Below, in pieces: positions 39,170 to 49,016 of a DNA stretch of 64,000 nucleotides. The notes under the pieces were generated by a model that was not told the origin of the DNA, searched no databases, and saw only the letters and a list, made by a program, of their open reading frames with translations. Numbering within the stretch: position 1 is the stretch's first letter; each line of letters starts with the position of its first letter. The position numbers were made by a program, and so were the translations under genes. The DNA comes from Escherichia phage vB_EcoM_VR26: sequence record NC_028957.1; one strand, given 5' to 3'.

Positions 39170-40729
39170 ATGAAAAAGAATGCATTAGTTCAAAAATGGT
39201 CCGCTCTGCTGGAAAACGAAGCTCTTCCTGAAATCGTTGGTGCTTCTAAACAAGCTATCATCGCTAAAATCTTTGAAAACCAGGAACAAGATATCCTGAC
39301 CGCTCCTGAATACCGTGACGAAAAAATCTCCGAAGCATTTGGTTCTTTCCTGACTGAAGCTGAAATCGGTGGTGACCATGGTTATGATGCTACCAATATC
39401 GCGGCTGGCCAGACCTCTGGTGCAGTAACTCAGATTGGGCCGGCAGTTATGGGTATGGTTCGTCGTGCTATCCCACATCTGATTGCGTTTGATATTTGTG
39501 GCGTACAGCCTCTGAACAACCCGACTGGCCAGGTATTTGCCCTGCGTGCAGTTTACGGTAAAGACCCTGTAGCTGCTGGTGCTAAAGAAGCTTTCCACCC
39601 GATGTATGCTCCGAACGCTATGTTCTCCGGTCAGGGCGCTGCTGAAGCTTTCGAAGCTCTGGCTGCAAGCAAAGTTCTTACCGTTGGTAAAATTTATTCT
39701 CACTTCTTCGAAGCAACCGGTTCCGCACACTACCAGGCTGTTGAAGCTGTAACCGTTGATGCCGCCGCTACTGATGCTGCTAAACTTGACGCTGAAGTTA
39801 CCAAACTGCTCGAAGCTGGTAAGCTGGCAGAAATCGCTGAAGGTATGGCTACCTCTATCGCCGAACTGCAGGAAGGTTTCAACGGTTCTCAGGATAACCC
39901 GTGGAACGAAATGGGCTTCCGCATCGATAAACAAGTTATCGAAGCTAAATCCCGTCAGCTGAAAGCAAGCTACTCTATCGAACTGGCACAGGACCTGCGC
40001 GCTGTTCACGGTATGGATGCTGATGCCGAATTGAGTGGTATTCTGGCTACTGAAATTATGCTGGAAATCAACCGCGAAGTTATCGATTGGATTAACTACT
40101 CCGCACAGGTTGGTAAATCTGGTATGACCAACACCGTTGGCGCTAAAGCTGGTGTGTTTGACTTCCAGGACCCAATTGATATCCGTGGCGCTCGTTGGGC
40201 TGGTGAAAGCTTCAAAGCTTTACTGTTCCAGATTGATAAAGAAGCCGCTGAAATCGCTCGTCAGACCGGTCGTGGTGCAGGTAACTTCATCATCGCTTCC
40301 CGTAACGTAGTTAACGTACTGGCTGCAGTTGATACCTCCGTATCTTATGCTGCTCAGGGTCTGGGTAAAGGTTTCAACGTTGACACCACTAAAGCTGTGT
40401 TCGCTGGTGTTCTGGGTGGCAAATACCGTGTCTATATCGACCAGTATGCTCGCGCAGATTACTTCACCATCGGTTACAAAGGCGCTAACGAAATGGATGC
40501 TGGTATCTACTACGCACCATATGTTGCACTGACCCCGCTGCGTGGCTCTGACCCGAAAAACTTCCAGCCAGTTATGGGCTTCAAAACCCGTTACGGTATC
40601 GGTATTAACCCGTTCGCTGACCCGGCAGCTCAGGCTCCGACCAAGCGTATTCAAAACGGCATGCCGGACATCGTTAACAGCCTCGGCTTGAACGGTTACT
40701 TCCGCCGCGTATATGTTAAAGGAATTTAA
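39170..40729 (+). CDS. 23: gp23 major capsid protein
   Basis: 519 aa; long identical stretches to T4 gp23 as recalled, e.g. GDHGY.ATNIAAGQTSGAVTQIGPAVMGMVRRAIP and YFRRVYVKGI. Confidence 0.97.
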   Translation: MKKNALVQKWSALLENEALPEIVGASKQAIIAKIFENQEQDILTAPEYRDEKISEAFGSFLTEAEIGGDHGYDATNIAAGQTSGAVTQIGPAVMGMVRRAIPHLIAFDICGVQPLNNPTGQVFALRAVYGKDPVAAGAKEAFHPMYAPNAMFSGQGAAEAFEALAASKVLTVGKIYSHFFEATGSAHYQAVEAVTVDAAATDAAKLDAEVTKLLEAGKLAEIAEGMATSIAELQEGFNGSQDNPWNEMGFRIDKQVIEAKSRQLKASYSIELAQDLRAVHGMDADAELSGILATEIMLEINREVIDWINYSAQVGKSGMTNTVGAKAGVFDFQDPIDIRGARWAGESFKALLFQIDKEAAEIARQTGRGAGNFIIASRNVVNVLAAVDTSVSYAAQGLGKGFNVDTTKAVFAGVLGGKYRVYIDQYARADYFTIGYKGANEMDAGIYYAPYVALTPLRGSDPKNFQPVMGFKTRYGIGINPFADPAAQAPTKRIQNGMPDIVNSLGLNGYFRRVYVKGI

Positions 40730-40750
40730 TCTTAGATTAAGTTAAATAAA

Positions 40751-40780
40751 AAGGGACCCTTGAGGTCCCTTTCTTGTTTT
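40751..40780 (+). terminator. rho-independent terminator after gene 23
   Basis: GGGACC CTTGA GGTCCC followed by a T-rich run. Confidence 0.7.
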
Positions 40781-41073
40781 CATACCATACCATTTAAATG
40801 AACTTCTACCCGGCGCTTGATGAGGTCTCTGAAATTAACACTGTTCTCTTGAAGTTTCAACCAGTTACCCGATTTGTCTCTGGTGTGAGTAGAATAATTA
40901 CCATTCCACCAAAAATCAGTGTCATATGCTAAGTTTTCATATTTTTTAACTAGTTTGTTCAGAGCATTACCATTAACACCATTTGGGTATTTGTTGACCA
41001 ATGCAACAACTTCAATTTCCAGATTTTTAAAGGTATTCCGAAGGAAAGATACTTTGTTCATTTTAGACTCCAT
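40780..41073 (-). CDS. hypothetical protein, early gene inserted between 23 and 24
   Basis: 97-aa reverse-strand ORF with its own early-promoter element; the in-frame ATG at 41061 has the better SD (GGAG). Confidence 0.5.
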   Translation of the reverse strand: MESKMNKVSFLRNTFKNLEIEVVALVNKYPNGVNGNALNKLVKKYENLAYDTDFWWNGNYSTHTRDKSGNWLKLQENSVNFRDLIKRRVEVHLNGMV

Positions 41074-41133: not shown

Positions 41134-41141
41134 TATAAATA
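41134..41141 (+). promoter_or_regulatory. late promoter TATAAATA for gene 24
   Basis: Exact TATAAATA about 27 nt upstream of the gene 24 ATG. Confidence 0.65.
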
Positions 41142-41167
41142 AAGTATATCACAAAAGGAAAGCGCAA

Positions 41168-42448
41168 ATGGCAAAGATTAACAAATTACTGCGCGAGTCA
41201 ACTACCACTACCAGCAACTCCTTGGGCCGCCCGAATCTTGTTGCTTTGACCCGTGCTACAACCAAATTGATTTACCGCGATATTATCGCTGAACAACGTA
41301 CTAACCAGCCAGTTGCTGCGCTGTACGGTGTTAAATATCTTACTCCTGATAATGAATTCAGTTTCCAGACTGGTGCTACTTATGGTGGTGAAGTTGGTTC
41401 TAAAGACCGTGAAACAATTCCGGAATTTACAACCCCAACTCAGGCCGTAGCTAAAGGTGGATACATTAAATTCCAGAATATCGTTTATAAAGCTCTGGTT
41501 GATAATCCATTTGCATCGACCACAGAAACAGTGTTATCTGATGTTCTGCAAGAAGGTCTTGTTGCATTAACTATTCGTTTAGTTCCTGATGCTGCACACA
41601 CCGAAAAATTTGAAGCTGGTGATGTTGAAATTAGTAACGCCGTGTTCCAGGTTAATAAATGGAATGCTCCTGTTAAATCCCGTAAATTGAAAACTGCATT
41701 AACTGTTGAGCTTGCTCAGGATATGGAAGCAAATGGCTTTAATGCTCCTGCATTCCTGGAAGACCTGCTTGCTACTATTATGGCAGATGAAATTAACAAA
41801 GATGTTCTTCAGTCTCTTATTACCGTTTCCAAGCGTTATAAAGTAACTGGCGTTTCTGACAATGGCACCATCGATTTAACATATGATGCAGCTCCAGAAG
41901 GTGCACGTAAACTGTACGAACTGGTTTGTGAAATGAACTCTGAAATTCAGAAAACTACATCTTACTCTGGTACATTCGTTGTTGCCTCAAGTCGTGTGGC
42001 TGCGATGCTCGCCGGTTCCGGTTGGTTGAAACATAAACCTGAAGATGAACAATGGCTCCCGGAAACCGCGTATGGTTATTTGATTAATGGTCTTCCTGTA
42101 TTCTGTGATGTTAACAGCCCATTGGATTATGTGACTGTTGGTGTTAAAGAGAATTATGGTGGTAACGAGGTCGTGGGCTCAATTTTCTATGCTCCTTATA
42201 CAGAAGGCCTGGACTTAGATGATGAAGAGCATGTAGGCGCGTTTAAGGTCATTGTGGACCCAGACAGCTTGCAGCCATCTATCTCCCTGATGGTTCGATA
42301 TGCACTTTCAGCTAACCCTTACACCGTTGCTAAAGACGACAAAGAAGCTCGTATTATCGATGCAACTAATATGGATTTAATGGCTGGCCAGAGCAACATG
42401 TCTTATCTGCTCGGTGTTAAACTTCCACCAATCATTTATGAGGCGTAA
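41168..42448 (+). CDS. 24: gp24 capsid vertex protein
   Basis: 426 aa; N-terminus MAKINKLLRESTTTTSNSLGRPNLVALTRATTKLIY close to T4 gp24. Confidence 0.9.
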   Translation: MAKINKLLRESTTTTSNSLGRPNLVALTRATTKLIYRDIIAEQRTNQPVAALYGVKYLTPDNEFSFQTGATYGGEVGSKDRETIPEFTTPTQAVAKGGYIKFQNIVYKALVDNPFASTTETVLSDVLQEGLVALTIRLVPDAAHTEKFEAGDVEISNAVFQVNKWNAPVKSRKLKTALTVELAQDMEANGFNAPAFLEDLLATIMADEINKDVLQSLITVSKRYKVTGVSDNGTIDLTYDAAPEGARKLYELVCEMNSEIQKTTSYSGTFVVASSRVAAMLAGSGWLKHKPEDEQWLPETAYGYLINGLPVFCDVNSPLDYVTVGVKENYGGNEVVGSIFYAPYTEGLDLDDEEHVGAFKVIVDPDSLQPSISLMVRYALSANPYTVAKDDKEARIIDATNMDLMAGQSNMSYLLGVKLPPIIYEA

Positions 42449-43732
42449 ATGCAAAAGATTAACGCACTAATTCACGAATCAACATTAACGGCGGCCAACC
42501 AGGTCGCCCGTCCTAATTTGCTTTCTTATACTCGAGCTACGAATAAACGAATTTTTAAAGCTCTCGTGGCCGAACAGAAAACTACTCAGCCAGTTGCAGC
42601 GCTGTATGGCGTTCGTGTTCTGAACCCAGATGATAAAATGACTTATCTTGGTGGAGCAACGTTTGCCGGTCAAATTGGTATGTTCGAGCGTAAGAATATT
42701 CCAGAATTTACGAACAAAGACGAAGCTTATGCAGTCGGCGATATGTTCCAGTTTGAAAGCATTGTATTCAAAGCTTTGGAAGCTTCTCCTTTTGCCGGGA
42801 CCCTCGAAACTGATTTGGGTGAAGTTATTTCTGAAGCCATTGCGGCTGGCCATATAAGAATGATGTCAGATGCGGCTTTCACTGATAAATTTGAACAAGG
42901 ACATCCTGAAATTGCTGAAGCCGGTTTCCGTATCGATAAATGGCAGACTGAAGTTAAATCCAGAAAACTGAAAACCTCTTTAACCGTTGAGCTTGCGCAA
43001 GACCTGGAAGCAAATGGTTTCGACGCAACAGATTTTATTGATAATATCCTTGGCATTCAAATGGCAGAGGAAATTAATAAGGACGTACTGCAATCTTTAA
43101 TTACCGTAAGTTCACGTTTTAAAGTCCAGGGTGTTTCCGAAAAAGGTGTACTTAATCTTACTGATGCCGCTTATGATAATGCTCAGGACCGTGCTCGAAC
43201 TCTGTATTATTATATGTGCGAAATGAATTCCGCAGTTCAACGTCAGACTTCGTTCGCTGGTACATATGCAGTCGCTTCTTCCCGTTGTGCAGCTATTTTA
43301 GCCGCTTCTGGCTGGGTTGAGAAAAAGGAAGACCAAGATGAATTGGCCTATGGTGTTCTGAAGAACGGTTTGCCACTTTATGCAGATATGAATAGCCCGT
43401 GCGATTATGTTATTGTTGGTGTAAATGCTGATATGGGTGAAGGCCAGACGGTCGCATCTTTGTATTATGCGCCTTATACGGAAGGTCTTAGTGAAGTTGA
43501 TGATGAGGGTGACACCTCGGTTGGGGAATTCAAGGTTATTGTTGACCCTGAAAGTTTACAGCCTACAGTTGCATTGTTAGCTCGTTATGCACTGACTGCG
43601 AACCCTTATACCGTTGCTAAAGACGATAAAGAAGCTCGCATTATTGATGGGGCTGATATGGATAAGATGGCTAACCAAAGTCAATTGAGTTCTTATCTTG
43701 GTGTTAAACTTCCACCACTGGAAAAAGAATAA
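42449..43732 (+). CDS. gp24 paralog, second vertex-protein homolog
   Basis: 427 aa; clearly homologous to the upstream gp24 (shared RPNL...TRAT, KSRKLKT.LTVELAQD.EANGF, ANPYTVAKDDKEARIID) but diverged. Confidence 0.85.
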   Translation: MQKINALIHESTLTAANQVARPNLLSYTRATNKRIFKALVAEQKTTQPVAALYGVRVLNPDDKMTYLGGATFAGQIGMFERKNIPEFTNKDEAYAVGDMFQFESIVFKALEASPFAGTLETDLGEVISEAIAAGHIRMMSDAAFTDKFEQGHPEIAEAGFRIDKWQTEVKSRKLKTSLTVELAQDLEANGFDATDFIDNILGIQMAEEINKDVLQSLITVSSRFKVQGVSEKGVLNLTDAAYDNAQDRARTLYYYMCEMNSAVQRQTSFAGTYAVASSRCAAILAASGWVEKKEDQDELAYGVLKNGLPLYADMNSPCDYVIVGVNADMGEGQTVASLYYAPYTEGLSEVDDEGDTSVGEFKVIVDPESLQPTVALLARYALTANPYTVAKDDKEARIIDGADMDKMANQSQLSSYLGVKLPPLEKE

Positions 43733-43752
43733 GGGCCTTGCGGCCCTTTTTA
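43731..43752 (+). terminator. rho-independent terminator after the gp24 paralog
   Basis: GGGCC TTGC GGCCC followed by TTTTT. Confidence 0.7.
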
Positions 43753-44757
43753 TTAACTAATTAATGCAATCCAAACATGTCTTAATGTATCTCTTACATT
43801 TGCAATGAGTTGCTTTTTAACTTCAACAGGATTTTCTGCATCGGTTAATTCTAATTCTTCACGGGACGCCTCTTCCAAAATATCTTGGGCTGTTAGTCCC
43901 ATTACCTTTCCGAAATCCTTAGGCGTTACTTCACCAATCTTACTGATAACATTGTTAATACGGTTAACAGTCACATAATCAGTGAATTGCCACAGCAGGT
44001 CCATGTCATCTTGGGACAACACAACAGCAGCCTTGATAGGCTTATCAGACTTTTTCTTTTCGCTAAATTTAGAGTTCTTACATTTAATCGCTACGCGCTC
44101 ACCATTAGGTAACCAGGCAGGAGTATCAGGTTTAAGAACATACCCTTCTGCAGTGAATACTTTACCTTCAACCTTTGCGTCAAAATCGGTGGTATTCGCG
44201 GTAGTCAAACCCGCATTATCTACTGTAAAATTGTAATCAGGAACCACAGAATCCAGGTCGTTAGGGAGCTTAATCAAGTCTTCAAAGCTACCCGTAGCCA
44301 GGCGTGGGGCAACCTTAAATTTATGGATAATACAGAAGGCTTCCATCAATGAATCAGTCAAAACAGATTCAGAGCCATCTTCCTTAGTAACGCGGATATC
44401 AAATACATAGAAATCTTTGTCACCATAATCCACATTCTTCTGGATACCGGCCCCGGCAAACTCACCATAAATTTGGTATGATTGATAATTAATATCCTGT
44501 AAAAGTCTCTGCACAGTTTTAATGGAATCTGCATAGTTCTTGAGTACAATTTCGTAGCCATAGAAATCTTCTGCAGGTGGGATAGGTCCAGTGCGTTTCG
44601 CACATGTCACATTGTCTTGTTCAATGATTAATGAAAAGTTGGTGCCATGAATCTTTTCACGCGCTACCCATTCACCGCTGGTGAAGCCTTGCAGGCGAAT
44701 CTTTTCAATGAACTTGTTGTTATAGTGATTTTCAAGGCTGTTGTATTTCTTAAACAT
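43753..44757 (-). CDS. rnlB: RNA ligase 2 (RnlB)
   Basis: 334 aa; adenylylation motif KIHGTN; very close to T4 Rnl2 as recalled. Confidence 0.9.
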
Positions 44758-45487: not shown

Positions 45488-47014
45488 ATGACACAAACTA
45501 CAGGTGAAAAAGAAGGCGTATTTTACGGTTATTCTCTTTATGATTTGAATAAAGAAAAACTAATAACTTTTGATGAATTACTTACGGGTATTCAAGGAGA
45601 GCCCGGAGAAAATGGCGATATTGGACCAAAAGGCCCTATTGGTTTAACAGGTCCTCAAGGACCGAAAGGTGATATCGGGTCAAAAGGTATTAAAGGTGAT
45701 ACAGGTCCTCAAGGTATTCAAGGGCCCGCTGGCCCACAAGGTCCTCAGGGAGAAAAGGGAGTCCAAGGTTTAGCTGGAGTCCAAGGCATTCAAGGACCAG
45801 TCGGCCACCAAGGAGTGAAAGGTGATACCGGCCCTCAAGGTATTCAAGGACCGAAAGGTGATACAGGAGCACAAGGCCCACAAGGTGACAAAGGCGAAAT
45901 GGGTCCGGTGGGTCCGGCTGGTCTAACATGGAAAGGAACATGGGACGCTGATGTAGAGTATTCTATAAATGAGGCTGTCGGATATGGTGGTTCTTTATAT
46001 TTCGCCAAAACAAAAGTTCCTAATGGCGAAATACCAACACCGACTTCTAACTATTGGGGTGTTTTGGCTACCGAGGGTCCACAAGGTCCACAAGGTCAAC
46101 AAGGTCTTAAAGGTGATACCGGTCCTCAAGGTATTCAAGGACCTGTAGGGCCTGTAGGGCCGCAGGGTATTCAGGGACCAAGAGGACTTCAAGGGTCAGA
46201 AGGTGAAATAGGACCGCGGGGTATTCAAGGGCTAAAAGGCGAAACTGGGCCCGCTGGTCCACAGGGTATTCAAGGGCTAAAAGGCGAGGTGGGTGCTCAG
46301 GGTCCTTCTGGTTCTCCTGGACTTACAGGACCAGAAGGACCTCGTGGGTTAACAGGCGAAGCTGGAGCTCAAGGACCTCGTGGTGCTATAGGTCCTATCG
46401 GTTTAACAGGTCCTATCGGTTTAACGGGTCCTCAAGGTATTCAAGGTCCGAAAGGTGATACAGGTCCTCAAGGCTTACAAGGTCCTCAAGGCTTACGAGG
46501 TATTCAAGGAGCTCCTGGAGTAAAAGGAGAAGCGGGTGCACAAGGTCCGAAAGGTGATACAGGAGCACAAGGTCCTATTGGTTTAACTGGACCTAAAGGT
46601 GATACAGGCCCGAGCCCTTATACTGTTTATAATTATTCTAATGTTGCAACTGGTTATGCTGAAATGGTTATGCCTGGTGTGTCATCAAACACAGTATTTA
46701 GACTTCGTTCAGTTGGAACTAATATAGAATATAGTGTTCTAAGTAAAGGCGGAGCTAATAGATATGTAGATTGGCACTTTTCAATTCCAAGTGTTTCCGG
46801 CAATACAGTAAGTACTAATAGCGGAACTAATACATTAACTCCTACAGGTAATTTTACTATTGTGGCGACCGCTTATAATGGACTAAGGGGATTTACAATA
46901 ACATTATGCGAGTGGGGTTCAAGAGCTATTGTTGATATCACTGTTTATCATCATGGGCGTTCGGGAGACACAACCAAAGCTGTGGCTATTCGTATGACTA
47001 CTACAAAATACTAA
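45488..47014 (+). CDS. collagen-like triple-helix repeat protein with C-terminal globular domain
   Basis: Two Gly-X-Y runs (about residues 34-146 and 197-375) split by a 50-aa non-collagenous insert, then a 133-aa C-terminal domain; GGAGG SD. Confidence 0.8.
   Translation: MTQTTGEKEGVFYGYSLYDLNKEKLITFDELLTGIQGEPGENGDIGPKGPIGLTGPQGPKGDIGSKGIKGDTGPQGIQGPAGPQGPQGEKGVQGLAGVQGIQGPVGHQGVKGDTGPQGIQGPKGDTGAQGPQGDKGEMGPVGPAGLTWKGTWDADVEYSINEAVGYGGSLYFAKTKVPNGEIPTPTSNYWGVLATEGPQGPQGQQGLKGDTGPQGIQGPVGPVGPQGIQGPRGLQGSEGEIGPRGIQGLKGETGPAGPQGIQGLKGEVGAQGPSGSPGLTGPEGPRGLTGEAGAQGPRGAIGPIGLTGPIGLTGPQGIQGPKGDTGPQGLQGPQGLRGIQGAPGVKGEAGAQGPKGDTGAQGPIGLTGPKGDTGPSPYTVYNYSNVATGYAEMVMPGVSSNTVFRLRSVGTNIEYSVLSKGGANRYVDWHFSIPSVSGNTVSTNSGTNTLTPTGNFTIVATAYNGLRGFTITLCEWGSRAIVDITVYHHGRSGDTTKAVAIRMTTTKY
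45587..46612 (+). repeat. Gly-X-Y collagen-repeat coding region with recurring near-identical nucleotide blocks
   Basis: Recurring blocks such as AAAGGTGATACAGGTCCTCAAGGTATTCAAGG; interrupted at about 45926-46078. Confidence 0.7.
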
Positions 47015-47023
47015 GGAGCTTTA

Positions 47024-47887
47024 ATGGAACCGGTTAAAGCTGTGTTAGAGCCTGATGTAATAGATGTGGAATATGGTAATACATACTCGGCTACTGTAAC
47101 TCTGTCTCCTATAGAAAATATTCCAGATGGTTCCGTGATAAGATATGATTGGGTTGTTAATAACAAGTTCGTTGGTACGGGTGAAGCTACTCGTACCACC
47201 CAACCATCTCAGACCGGAAATTATGTATTATCATGTAGAGTATTCATTACTCCGCCTAATGAAAATACTGTAATGGTAACAACTAATAAATCATATGGGT
47301 ATGTATATAAAAATTCCGATACAAGTCCAGTAGATGCAGAAATATTATATGATAACAAGATATACCAAGTAGGAAGCAAAGTTAGATTATTAGCCGTTGC
47401 CAATAACCCAGATACCAACTTTGTTAAAGGTATTATATGGAAGGATGCTGATGGTAAGATAATAGGTATAGGTCGGGAATATATCCATACAATGCAATCA
47501 GAGTATGATATAGTTCGAGCTAAAGTTACAATGGATTCGCCTATAAGAGATGAATTTAGTAAGAACTTTACTATACATTTGTACGCTATAAATGTTCAAG
47601 AAGGAACATGTATAAGATATATTCATCCTTTAGACCACAGGGATGCAGGATTTATCTGGTGTGGTTGGTGGGTTATGGATGAAATCCAACGAGCGATAAA
47701 ACTTGGGCTGGATTGGAAAAATCCAAAAGAGCTAGATTTAAATTACAAGTGTGATTTAGAGACATTAGCGTTATTGCTCAAGACATATCCTGAAGCCGAA
47801 GTTCAAGAATCAAGACACGGATATATAATAACCAGACTACAAATTGAGACTGGCGGAATATATGAAAAACCATATGAAGTAAAATAA
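47024..47887 (+). CDS. Hoc-like protein, N-terminal beta-rich region plus Hoc-type C-terminal domain
   Basis: C-terminal YIHPL...FIWCGWWVMDEIQ...YPEAEVQESRHGYI is homologous to the Hoc C-terminus encoded on the opposite strand; starts 9 nt after the collagen-like ORF. Confidence 0.7.
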   Translation: MEPVKAVLEPDVIDVEYGNTYSATVTLSPIENIPDGSVIRYDWVVNNKFVGTGEATRTTQPSQTGNYVLSCRVFITPPNENTVMVTTNKSYGYVYKNSDTSPVDAEILYDNKIYQVGSKVRLLAVANNPDTNFVKGIIWKDADGKIIGIGREYIHTMQSEYDIVRAKVTMDSPIRDEFSKNFTIHLYAINVQEGTCIRYIHPLDHRDAGFIWCGWWVMDEIQRAIKLGLDWKNPKELDLNYKCDLETLALLLKTYPEAEVQESRHGYIITRLQIETGGIYEKPYEVK

Positions 47888-47912: not shown

Positions 47913-49016
47913 TTAATAGACGTAATCGTATATAATACCAGCTTCCAATGCCGAACGGTGGACGATACGACCGTTACGAGATTCCTGTACATCAACTTCC
48001 GGGTAATCACTAAGCATTTTGGCTAATACCGCCAGATGACAATAATATGGTGTATCCTCTTTAGTGGCTTTTTTCCAATCTGTACTTTCAGATGTTAATT
48101 TCTGAATAGCGTCCATAACCCACCAACCACACCAAATATACGCAGTATTACGGACAGGAAGTGGATGTACATAAATTAAAGGACATTCTTCTGGAACAAC
48201 AGGCTCTGCTTCTGTCACCGTAACAGACTTATTACCTGATTTAACTGAATTTGTAAAGCCTGTTTGTGATGCAGTAACTTCACAAGTATATGACTTCAAG
48301 CCTTCAGTGGATTCCGTTATTGCTCTTGTTGCTTCTGTTGAGTTGTCGTCCCATTTATATGCAAGAGTAGCGCCAGGAATAGCAGGGGACACAGAAGCTG
48401 TCAAATTGAATGGAACATCAACCGTTGCAGTAGACGGGCCTGAAATCTCAACAGTGAACTCAGGGAATGTATTGTTTTCGACCGTAACAACTACTGCATC
48501 AGGATTAATAACTTGGTTGTCATAATCTGCAGCAGAAATGGTAATTTGACAAGTTAAAGAAACCGGCCCTGCAACAGTAGCAGTACGAGTAATATCTTTA
48601 GTAATTTCACCAGTAGACCACAAATATGCTATTGTAGCTCCACCAGGTTCACCTGTTACATTAGCCGAAGCGTTATATTCCTCGCCAACTTTAACGGTTG
48701 GAGTGGAAGTTGTTAATGTTGCAGTTGCAGACATAGTCTTGTTATTAACTGTAATAGTTGTTTGAGCCTCTGCCGTTTCAGGCTCTCCTTCTTCCGGCGT
48801 TGTGGTGGCAACAACTTTAATTACTTTTGAACCTGCTGGGCCAGCTGCAATATAATCCATAGTAGCAATAACAGAAGCTTGTGGAACCTCATCAACGGTC
48901 CATACAAAAGATTCGGTACCAGCGACAGCGGCTCCAGCCCCAGTAGCAGTAAAATTAGTTGTTGCACCTATAACCGCTGTAGGTGTTAAAGGGGCAATTG
49001 ATACAGTATAAGCCAT
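47913..49016 (-). CDS. hoc: Hoc outer capsid decoration protein
   Basis: 367 aa; Thr/Ala-rich repeated domains with a G.Y..C.V motif; C-terminal WCGWWVMD capsid-binding-type domain; synteny. Confidence 0.8.
   Translation of the reverse strand: MAYTVSIAPLTPTAVIGATTNFTATGAGAAVAGTESFVWTVDEVPQASVIATMDYIAAGPAGSKVIKVVATTTPEEGEPETAEAQTTITVNNKTMSATATLTTSTPTVKVGEEYNASANVTGEPGGATIAYLWSTGEITKDITRTATVAGPVSLTCQITISAADYDNQVINPDAVVVTVENNTFPEFTVEISGPSTATVDVPFNLTASVSPAIPGATLAYKWDDNSTEATRAITESTEGLKSYTCEVTASQTGFTNSVKSGNKSVTVTEAEPVVPEECPLIYVHPLPVRNTAYIWCGWWVMDAIQKLTSESTDWKKATKEDTPYYCHLAVLAKMLSDYPEVDVQESRNGRIVHRSALEAGIIYDYVY

Follow-up and report, generated by a model that had tools for sequence, protein, structure and literature searches.

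The two adjacent genes 24 of Escherichia phage vB_EcoM_VR26 most likely encode two functional capsid vertex subunits, and their sequences mark the pair as ancient and co-inherited rather than as a fresh duplication. The stretch analysed (64,000 nt of NC_028957.1, hereafter the window) belongs to a Gaprivervirus with 96.8% nucleotide identity to VR25, and we consider it probable that the locus as a whole is a late operon for two old, co-inherited gp24 paralogs which both become part of the vertices. The pair itself is already known, as it is annotated as 24(1)/24(2) in VR7, 24a/24b in JS98 and IME08, capsid vertex protein I/II in VR25 and VR5 and head vertex protein I/II in the Salmonella phages S16, Melville and CGG4-1, and was described in print for S16 and Melville in the Melville genome paper. 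All of these pairs share genes, order and junction with the window, which represents another Gaprivervirus isolate, its first copy (c1) being 99.8% identical to VR20 vertex protein I and its second copy (c2) 100% identical at the amino acid level to VR7 gp24(2). The earlier records and the paper label the pair a "duplication" and did not analyse its age; newly shown here are the deep two-clade structure, the co-inheritance and the slower rate of c2.

Locus and gene context

The head genes are arranged in the order 20, 67, 68, 21, 22, 23, a small reverse ORF, c1 and c2. Gene 23 (39170-40729, plus strand) encodes a major capsid protein of 519 aa (Pfam Gp23, 1.7e-122), which is 99.8% identical to gp23 of VR25 and VR7 and 85% identical to T4 gp23. 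On its 3' side lie a terminator-like hairpin with a 9-12 bp stem and a subsequent T run (40750-40772, plus strand, scored on the minus strand too) and, between genes 23 and 24, the minus-strand ORF of 97 aa (40780-41073; PHROG 6003, 4.7e-49), a homolog of VR7 gp190 and JS98 orf173 that the records of VR25, VR7 and JS98 list as a hypothetical protein. The T4-type late promoter motif TATAAATA (41134-41141, plus strand) is located 34 nt 5' of the c1 start and is followed by a Shine-Dalgarno-like AAGGAA (41155-41160, plus strand). c1 (41168-42448, plus strand, 426 aa) encodes a T4-type capsid vertex protein orthologous to VR7 24(1), JS98 24a and T4 gp24, and its TAA stop codon (42446-42448) abuts the ATG of c2 (42449-43732, plus strand, 427 aa), a member of a deep c2-type gp24 clade orthologous to VR7 24(2), JS98 24b and the head vertex protein II of S16 type. 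A GAGG Shine-Dalgarno sequence for c2 (42440-42443, plus strand) is contained in the final c1 codons. A hairpin scan located a GC-rich hairpin with T runs on both strands (43731-43748) between c2 and the convergent rnlB, likely a bidirectional terminator that closes the gene 24 transcript. rnlB itself (43753-44757, minus strand; RNA ligase 2, 334 aa, Pfam RNA_ligase and T4_Rnl2_C) forms a conserved downstream border with the same position in all related loci, and the layout gp23, small reverse ORF, c1, c2 and rnlB is identical to that of VR25, VR7, JS98 and VR5.

The motif TATAAATA occurs 21 times in the window compared to about 5 expected matches. It precedes gene 24 in the window and in its relatives: of 15 paired loci, 13 have it 33-37 nt before the c1 start and none has it before c2. 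The c1/c2 junctions of all 15 fall between -4 and +1 nt. A separate promoter for c2 was considered and rejected, as no TATAAATA is present between 41142 and 43732, i.e. within or after c1, and sigma-70-like matches occur at chance level. We infer a two-gene late operon encoding two old gp24 paralogs, in which one late promoter would drive c1 and c2 and translation of c2 would be coupled to termination of c1; owing to the shared late promoter and the coupled translation both proteins would be made together at the time of capsid assembly. The tight coupling to c1 also suggests that c2 is produced in comparable and not in trace amounts.

Assignment of the two copies to gp24

The first-pass annotation had described two adjacent gp24 homologs of 426 and 427 aa, the first being nearer to T4 gp24, and had contrasted them with the single gene 24 of T4. 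All of this agrees with the data: both ORFs are present at the above positions, c1 is 70.5% and c2 55.7% identical to T4 gp24, a BLASTP comparison of c1 and c2 gave 57% identity and 75% positives over the full length (E = 6e-178), well above anything due to chance, and T4 records carry one gp24 plus gp23 (two places matched, and one at a stricter cut-off). The whole domain PF07068 (Gp23; cut-off 24.4 bits) was detected in c1 (2.3e-97, residues 19-417) and c2 (2e-98, residues 19-419), and both matched PHROG 138 (2e-131 and 5e-124, respectively). The T4 gp24 crystal chain 1yue_A aligned end to end with c1 (655 bits) and with c2 (499 bits), gp23 PDB chains being matched weakly at about 47 bits, and c1 is 28% identical over 248 aa to the gp23 of the window. 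Both copies fall within the gp24 clade of a tree rooted with gp23, and both have the length of gp24 (about 427 aa) without the longer N-terminal region of gp23. Judged from these comparisons, c1 and c2 are both of the gp24 rather than the gp23 type.

An AlphaFold2 monomer model of c2, obtained with moderate confidence (mean pLDDT 68, pTM 0.62), found its three best PDB matches in T4 gp24 chains (5vf3_a, TM 0.78/0.80; 7vrt_he, 0.72/0.80; 1yue, 0.68/0.73) and matched gp23 structures less well (TM about 0.5-0.57). c2 is thus predicted to have a gp24-type fold with HK97 P and A domains plus the insertion domain. T4 gp24 (PDB 1YUE, 5VF3, 7VRT/7VS5) is alike in its HK97 fold with insertion domain, its length (427 aa vs 426-427 aa here) and the position of its gene after gene 23, and its 10-residue propeptide ending in L-x-E has a predicted counterpart in c1 and c2. 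The maturation cleavage motif is retained in both N-termini (c1 MAKINKLLRE-S, c2 MQKINALIHE-S, the hyphen giving the predicted cleavage site), the motif (L/I)xE-S is found in all 30 genes of the 15 paired loci, and E10 and S11 are invariant in an alignment of 58 sequences. T4 gp24 is shortened by 10 residues at its N-terminus and assembles into 11 pentamers (PMC9546572). A homolog of gp21, the prohead protease, is encoded upstream of the pair, and c1 and c2 may both be processed by the prohead protease after Glu10.

Phylogeny and age of the pair

Neighbour-joining trees on corrected distances, not maximum likelihood trees, grouped c1-type genes and the single-copy gp24s of the crown in one clade and c2-type genes in a separate one, each at 100% bootstrap support. 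Each copy of the window lies within its respective 100% clade, c1 groups with T4-type gp24 at 99.4-100%, and monophyly of c1 and c2 was recovered in 0 of 500 bootstraps. The view of the first-pass annotation that c2 is a diverged duplicate local to this phage was not supported, as c1 and c2 were never sisters and c2 belongs to a deep clade whose members are always accompanied by a c1-type gene, its rate of evolution being lower than that of c1. Quartet site patterns favoured c1 + crown vs c2 + outgroup by 11-15 to 1-5, and the distance of c2 to Acinetobacter-phage outgroups is about the same as that of T4. The stem of c2 is long, and the nodes at its attachment point have bootstrap values of 32-34. 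Long-branch attraction of a fast, recent c2 was rejected after addition of stem-breaking deep c2 sequences, both clades still being at 100%; recent gene conversion between c1 and c2 was rejected likewise, the longest shared tract being 198 nt at 74% in the conserved 3' region and identical tracts being absent. From these trees, the c2 clade would have split from c1-type genes before the T4-, RB69-, CC31-, Moon- and EcS1-type gp24s separated, and a gene duplication at the crown base, with an early burst thereafter, is possible.

The distance matrices of c1 and c2 correlate (Mantel r = 0.877, with none of 5000 permutations as high) and the two trees are largely congruent, the placement of the ctg87084 group being the single supported conflict. 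Across 18 paired genomes c2 distances amount to 0.75x those of c1, i.e. c2 is the slower-evolving copy. The order gp23, c1, c2 is kept in all 15 loci examined, with c2 always directly behind a c1-type gene, and an FBB1-like pair stands at the base of either subtree, in keeping with a crown ancestor that already had the pair. The pair is probably inherited, and at times exchanged, as a unit. About 116 of 1088 phage records hold two gp24 genes, from phages that infect Escherichia, Salmonella, Erwinia, Enterobacter, Proteus and Yersinia. Genes of the c1 type are often solitary but c2 is never alone (15/15 loci paired). Use of the gp23 tree as a species tree for counting losses was discarded because of its backbone bootstraps of 4-59 and mosaicism.

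Origin of c2

The old pair could also have arisen if c2 were a xenolog from an unsampled T4-like lineage, placed behind the resident gene 24 and then spread together with c1 as a cassette, an origin that we hold to be possible rather than likely. c2 attaches outside the crown, in a polytomy with the gp24s of Jiaodavirus, Tegunavirus and Acinetobacter phages, and cassette exchange at the locus is directly visible when contig L023 is compared with JD18: both are 87-95% identical at the nucleotide level in gp21, gp22 and gp23 and in the rnlB block, and only 66-69% in gene 24, where L023 carries c1, c2 and an extra ORF in place of the one gene of JD18. The conflict at the ctg87084 group would fit such an exchange as well. 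However, a single-copy c2-type lineage as candidate donor was found neither among the 120 homologs listed from a 5.8-billion-protein database nor in 50,697 phage records, and the basal position of the FBB1-like pair in both subtrees argues against a foreign source. The other origin to be considered is an ancient in-genome duplication with subsequent losses in T4 and others. A Jiaodavirus donor for c2, which is 63-64% identical to Jiaodavirus gp24, was tried and set aside, since this gp24 lies on a short branch closest to everything and its grouping with c2 has 61% support.

Selection on the two copies

Both c1 and c2 are under strong purifying selection like gp23, with dN/dS values of about 0.06 for c1, about 0.05-0.065 for c2 and 0.07 for gp23. 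Of 73 positions without variation among 19 single-copy gp24s, c2 keeps 65, and its share of retained family-invariant positions is 87-89%. A decaying second copy, which the first-pass annotation had named as the finding that would speak against its proposal, is not seen at the sequence level, as dN/dS of c2 equals that of c1 and gp23, these 65 positions are kept and the gene is intact in every genome examined. Clade-wide changes in c2 affect 9 of 121 positions invariant in 15 closer single-copy gp24s; the clade-wide replacements cluster in the N-arm and I-linker 1 (L27Y, L34R, Y57V, Y72F), T204I and F341Y being further examples, and the flexible loop 348-359 has a +3 insertion specific to c2. 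T4 gp24 differs from c2 in this loop insertion and in the N-arm changes at otherwise invariant positions. Lineage-specific substitutions number 28-39 in c2 vs 4-14 in c1. A systematic difference in charge or pI between c1 and c2 was not observed (mean charge -20.0 vs -20.3, c2 being more negative in 11 of 18 pairs).

Possible roles at the capsid vertices

The 55 gp24 subunits of the T4 head resemble one another in structure (PMC9546572), so that geometry gives no obvious reason for having two vertex proteins. T4 differs from the present phage in having one gene and the same protein for all 55 vertex subunits, whereas two co-expressed paralogs are present here. A full-text literature search found no proteomic, genetic or structural (including cryo-EM) study of a second gp24, nor virion proteomics or a structure of any phage carrying the pair. 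In the account that we favour, c1 and c2 would both be incorporated into the prolate head at its eleven pentameric vertices, and the arrangement could be mixed pentamers or homopentamers at separate vertices. The suggestion of the first-pass annotation, two vertex kinds or vertices of mixed composition, is plausible. Since many c1-type genes have no partner whereas c2 always comes with one, c2 most likely modifies the vertices in dependence on c1 and is not a stand-alone vertex protein.

Alternatively, c2 might be a vertex protein that is interchangeable with c1, either alone being sufficient, and of advantage depending on conditions such as temperature, gut pH, proteases or a gp24-sensing defence. 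T4 vertices tolerate substitution, as gp23 bypass mutants replace gp24 (PMC3012670), and gp24 influences how stable the capsid is at low pH and 37 °C and how well digestive enzymes are resisted (PMC10580926). Furthermore, gp24 is under immune pressure, since the exchange A380V lets T6 escape type IV Thoeris (PMC13243611). However, separate regulation is missing, with one late promoter and coupled translation in the 15 loci, and the position corresponding to A380 of T6 is Ala in both c1 and c2, so that co-expression would not hide this feature. That c2 is never solitary also speaks against simple interchangeability. The VR phages, described as low-temperature phages, were counted in favour of a condition-dependent use, but the pair spans many hosts and habitats beyond low-temperature isolates, and altogether we regard interchangeable vertex proteins as improbable.

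The replacements and the loop insertion of c2 could equally well reflect a changed role, for example as an assembly-only factor missing from mature heads or as a subunit at one particular site, be it the distal apical vertex or a place beside the portal. The clade-wide changes at positions otherwise invariant in gp24, the unique insertion, the dependence on a c1-type partner and the extra same-strand ORFs after c2 in deep paired lineages are in line with such a job. c2 nevertheless retains the length, the modelled gp24-like fold, the propeptide cleavage motif and most family-invariant positions, and the comparable amounts suggested by its tight coupling to c1 do not fit either, making a separate role rather unlikely. 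That c2 is a recent, local tandem copy that drifts or decays and adds nothing to the virion is hardly credible, for the tandem arrangement, the lower similarity to T4 gp24 and the higher number of lineage-specific substitutions in c2 are outweighed by the absence of c1 + c2 monophyly in all bootstraps, by c2 orthologs that are always intact and paired, the most distant ones, from Erwinia and Salmonella phages and metagenomes, being 65-69% identical, by a dN/dS of about 0.05 and an evolution slower than that of c1, and by retained invariant positions with no frameshifts or stops seen.

Returning to two old paralogs that would both serve in the vertices, the paralogy of gp23 and gp24 offers a likeness, the vertex protein having come from the major capsid protein by duplication. 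Tandem copying of an HK97-fold capsid gene, with the copies specialised by their position in the shell, would have gone through a further round in c1 and c2. The two cases differ in that gp23 and gp24 are about 21-28% identical and have demonstrated hexamer and pentamer roles, whereas c1 and c2 are 57% identical. Work on large prolate capsids takes the T4 head as its reference model, and this head also serves as a display and delivery platform. A second vertex protein kept under strong selection in about a tenth of the sequenced relatives implies that in such phages the vertices do something which the T4 model misses, perhaps in stability, assembly control or the interplay with gp24-sensing host defences. 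Only tentatively, the capsid may be built from three HK97-fold paralogs, with c1 and c2 both obligatory in fixed hetero-pentamers or in different vertex classes and with the two-protein state being ancestral for the enterobacterial T4-like crown. If true, the single gene 24 of T4, the textbook case, would be a secondary simplification of an ancestral state with two vertex proteins. The vertex classes to be distinguished among the eleven vertices would be the apical one vs the two rings of five.

Two gp24 genes in tandem

As proposed in the first-pass annotation, two consecutive homologues of the T4 capsid vertex protein gp24 are encoded on the plus strand, an upstream gene (c1; 41168-42448, 426 aa) and a downstream gene that abuts it (c2; 42449-43732, 427 aa). 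Both proteins cover the Pfam Gp23 domain entirely, and likewise PHROG 138, and both can be aligned over their whole length with chain 1yue_A of the T4 gp24 crystal structure (655 bits for c1, 499 bits for c2), with gp23 (major capsid protein) chains as weak matches of about 47 bits. Between the two, identity is 57% and similarity 75% along the entire length (E = 6e-178), and the first copy is indeed nearer to T4 gp24 (70.5% versus 55.7% identity). An AlphaFold2 model of c2, of moderate confidence (mean pLDDT 68, pTM 0.62), matched T4 gp24 chains best in the PDB (top three hits, TM 0.68-0.80), gp23 following behind (TM about 0.5-0.57).

The existence of such a pair is known, as it has been annotated and published for close relatives and about 116 phage records hold two gp24 genes. 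Nucleotide identity over a 6-kb region is 96.8% to Escherichia phage vB_EcoM_VR25, 94.7% to VR20 and 92.3% to VR7, all of the genus Gaprivervirus. The pair is named capsid vertex protein I and II in VR25, VR20 and VR5, 24(1) and 24(2) in VR7, whose gp24(2) is 100% identical to c2 as a protein, 24a and 24b in JS98 and IME08 (Dhakavirus), and head vertex protein I and II in Salmonella phage CGG4-1. For the Salmonella phages S16 and Melville, it has been described in the Melville genome paper. The wider check of T4-like genomes, by tblastn with a cut-off strict enough to leave gp23 out, found gp24 at 1204 places in 1088 phage records, hence the estimate of about 116; beyond Dhakavirus and Gaprivervirus these include the Erwinia phages FBB1, Cronus and IT22, the Salmonella S16 group and one Proteus phage, and separate searches added one Enterobacter and one Yersinia phage. 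Full-text literature searches turned up no work on the second gp24 by proteomics, genetics or structure determination. What the analysis adds is that the pair is old and falls into two clades, that its members are inherited together, in a constant order and coupled, and that c2 is the slower to evolve.

Age and co-inheritance of the pair

Trees were built by neighbour-joining with bootstrap from Kimura-corrected distances. With 20 genomes, c1 and c2 were sisters in 0 of 500 replicates, and in 99.4% c1 clustered with the only gp24 of T4, Mosigvirus, Moonvirus, Karamvirus and Kagamiyamavirus, in agreement with quartet site patterns (11-15 sites versus 1-5). A second tree included 18 genomes with both gene types, six of the pairs being joined via the identical size of their source contigs and not read directly. 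Every upstream gene and every single-copy gp24 of the crown (T4-, RB69-, CC31-, Moon- and EcS1-type) formed one clade and every downstream gene another, each with 100% bootstrap. The first-pass interpretation is partly supported. The two vertex paralogs are real and look functional; a recent duplication followed by divergence is contradicted by the tree topology and by the lack of any gene-conversion tract between c1 and c2 (best common stretch 198 nt at 74%). The c2 clade attaches outside the crown with gp24 of Jiaodavirus, Tegunavirus and Acinetobacter phages, a poorly resolved position (bootstrap 32-34), and c2 looks "substantially diverged" only because T4 has no member of this clade.

In each of the two subtrees the FBB1-like pair branches at the base, and c1 and c2 pairwise distances among the 18 genomes are strongly correlated (Mantel r = 0.877, a value reached in 0 of 5000 permutations). 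Since c2 distances are 0.75 times those of c1, c2 is the slower-evolving copy. Among the matches listed from a collection of 5.8 billion proteins, c2-type proteins form a continuum reaching down to 65-69% identity, and all eight metagenomic c2-type contigs examined have the layout gp23, c1-type, c2-type and then the block of rnlB (RNA ligase 2).

In the tree, phages with one gp24 fall among the c1 partners of those with two, so one reading is that the crown ancestor may have carried the pair and that it was then lost several times, the T4 lineage being one such case; the gp23 tree, whose resolution is poor, could not stand in for a species tree. There is also direct evidence of cassette exchange: a metagenomic paired contig (L023) and Klebsiella phage JD18 share 87-95% nucleotide identity in gp21, gp22, gp23 and the rnlB block and 66-69% in gene 24, where the contig has c1, c2 and an extra ORF and JD18 a single gp24 gene, a mosaic replacement of this locus between otherwise close genomes. 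No c2-type gene was found as sole gp24 in phage records or among the matches listed from the protein collection, which argues against a simple donor lineage and suggests that c2 may depend on a c1-type partner.

Most metagenomic contigs with the pair carry one or two additional ORFs downstream of c2 on its strand, of about 240-346 aa, sometimes with one of about 166 aa (L020 2676-4506; L021 4890-6427; L022 5826-7341; L023 5827-6546; L025 4812-5546; L027 2634-4140). They gave no family match except a faint Collagen hit in L020, and may represent additional capsid accessory genes that go with the pair. In Klebsiella phage vB_KpnM_17-11 (MW239157.1), gp24, gp23, gp22 and portal are in reversed order, all on one strand with the rnlB block; as a simple inversion cannot give this arrangement, an artefact of the assembly or the record is probable, and only gp24 and gp23 protein sequences from this record were used.

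Constraint and expression

A decaying second copy, the alternative named at first pass, is not what was found: dN/dS (Nei-Gojobori, seven genomes, dS near saturation in the most distant pairs) was 0.05-0.065 for c2, about 0.06 for c1 and 0.07 for gp23, and of the 73 positions at which 19 single-copy gp24s do not vary, c2 retains 65 (c1 73/73). For 15 closer single-copy gp24s the values are 105/121 (c2) and 118/121 (c1). Clade-wide c2 replacements at otherwise invariant positions are L27Y, L34R, Y57V, Y72F, T204I and F341Y (T4 numbering), and c2 has a three-residue insertion within the flexible loop 348-359. Judged from the sequences, this pattern points to a functional shift, not decay.

A T4-type late promoter motif, TATAAATA (41134-41141), lies 34 nt upstream of c1, with none within or after c1. 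The c1 TAA abuts the c2 ATG, the GAGG Shine-Dalgarno of c2 (42440-42443) is inside the end of c1, and hairpins with T runs (40750-40772 and 43731-43748) flank the unit. In 15 loci with the pair, c1 and c2 meet at a junction of -4 to +1 nt and the motif is found 33-37 nt upstream of c1 in 13; with one upstream promoter and such a junction, both proteins would be made together, late in infection. T4 gp24 loses 10 N-terminal residues at an (L/I)-x-E|S motif (PMC9546572). As this motif is kept in every c1 and c2 of these loci, and an alignment of 58 sequences shows no variation at E10 and S11, both proteins look like prohead protease substrates.

Possible role at the vertices

The two genes thus encode conserved proteins of the gp24 fold, are co-transcribed and translationally coupled, and are passed on as a unit. 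Both products may enter the capsid at the pentameric vertices, c2 presumably as a dependent partner of c1, and the arrangement could be mixed pentamers or homopentamers at different vertices. As all 55 gp24 subunits of T4 are structurally alike (PMC9546572), a geometric need for two vertex proteins is not obvious. In T4, gp24 gives protection at low pH, at 37 °C and from digestive enzymes (PMC10580926), and an A380V change in T6 gp24 escapes type IV Thoeris (PMC13243611); capsid stability and immune sensing are thus possible selective contexts. A simple decoy or evasion role is not favoured, because c1 and c2 are always co-expressed and the alignment shows Ala in both at T4 position 380 (RYAL[ST]ANPYT); if type IV Thoeris senses the surface around this position, both paralogs would present it.

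Neighbouring genes

Two convergent Hoc-like head decoration genes are found at 47024-47887 (plus strand; PHROG 1149, 1e-57) and 47913-49016 (minus strand; PHROG 1149, 3e-115), with a common C-terminal capsid-binding domain of roughly 105 aa at 44% identity, so that a capsid decoration gene as well as the vertex gene is present in a second copy. Between a 24.3-like DUF2774 gene and Hoc, a 508-aa collagen-repeat protein with a non-collagen C-terminal domain is encoded (45488-47014, plus strand; Pfam Collagen 2e-47; PHROG 5073 'tail fiber'), the counterpart of which is annotated as collagen triple helix repeat protein in VR7 and VR25. Between genes 23 and 24, where T4 has the homing endonuclease gene segD and Acinetobacter phage 133 a Hef-like one, lies a small conserved ORF of 97 aa (40780-41073, minus strand; PHROG 6003).
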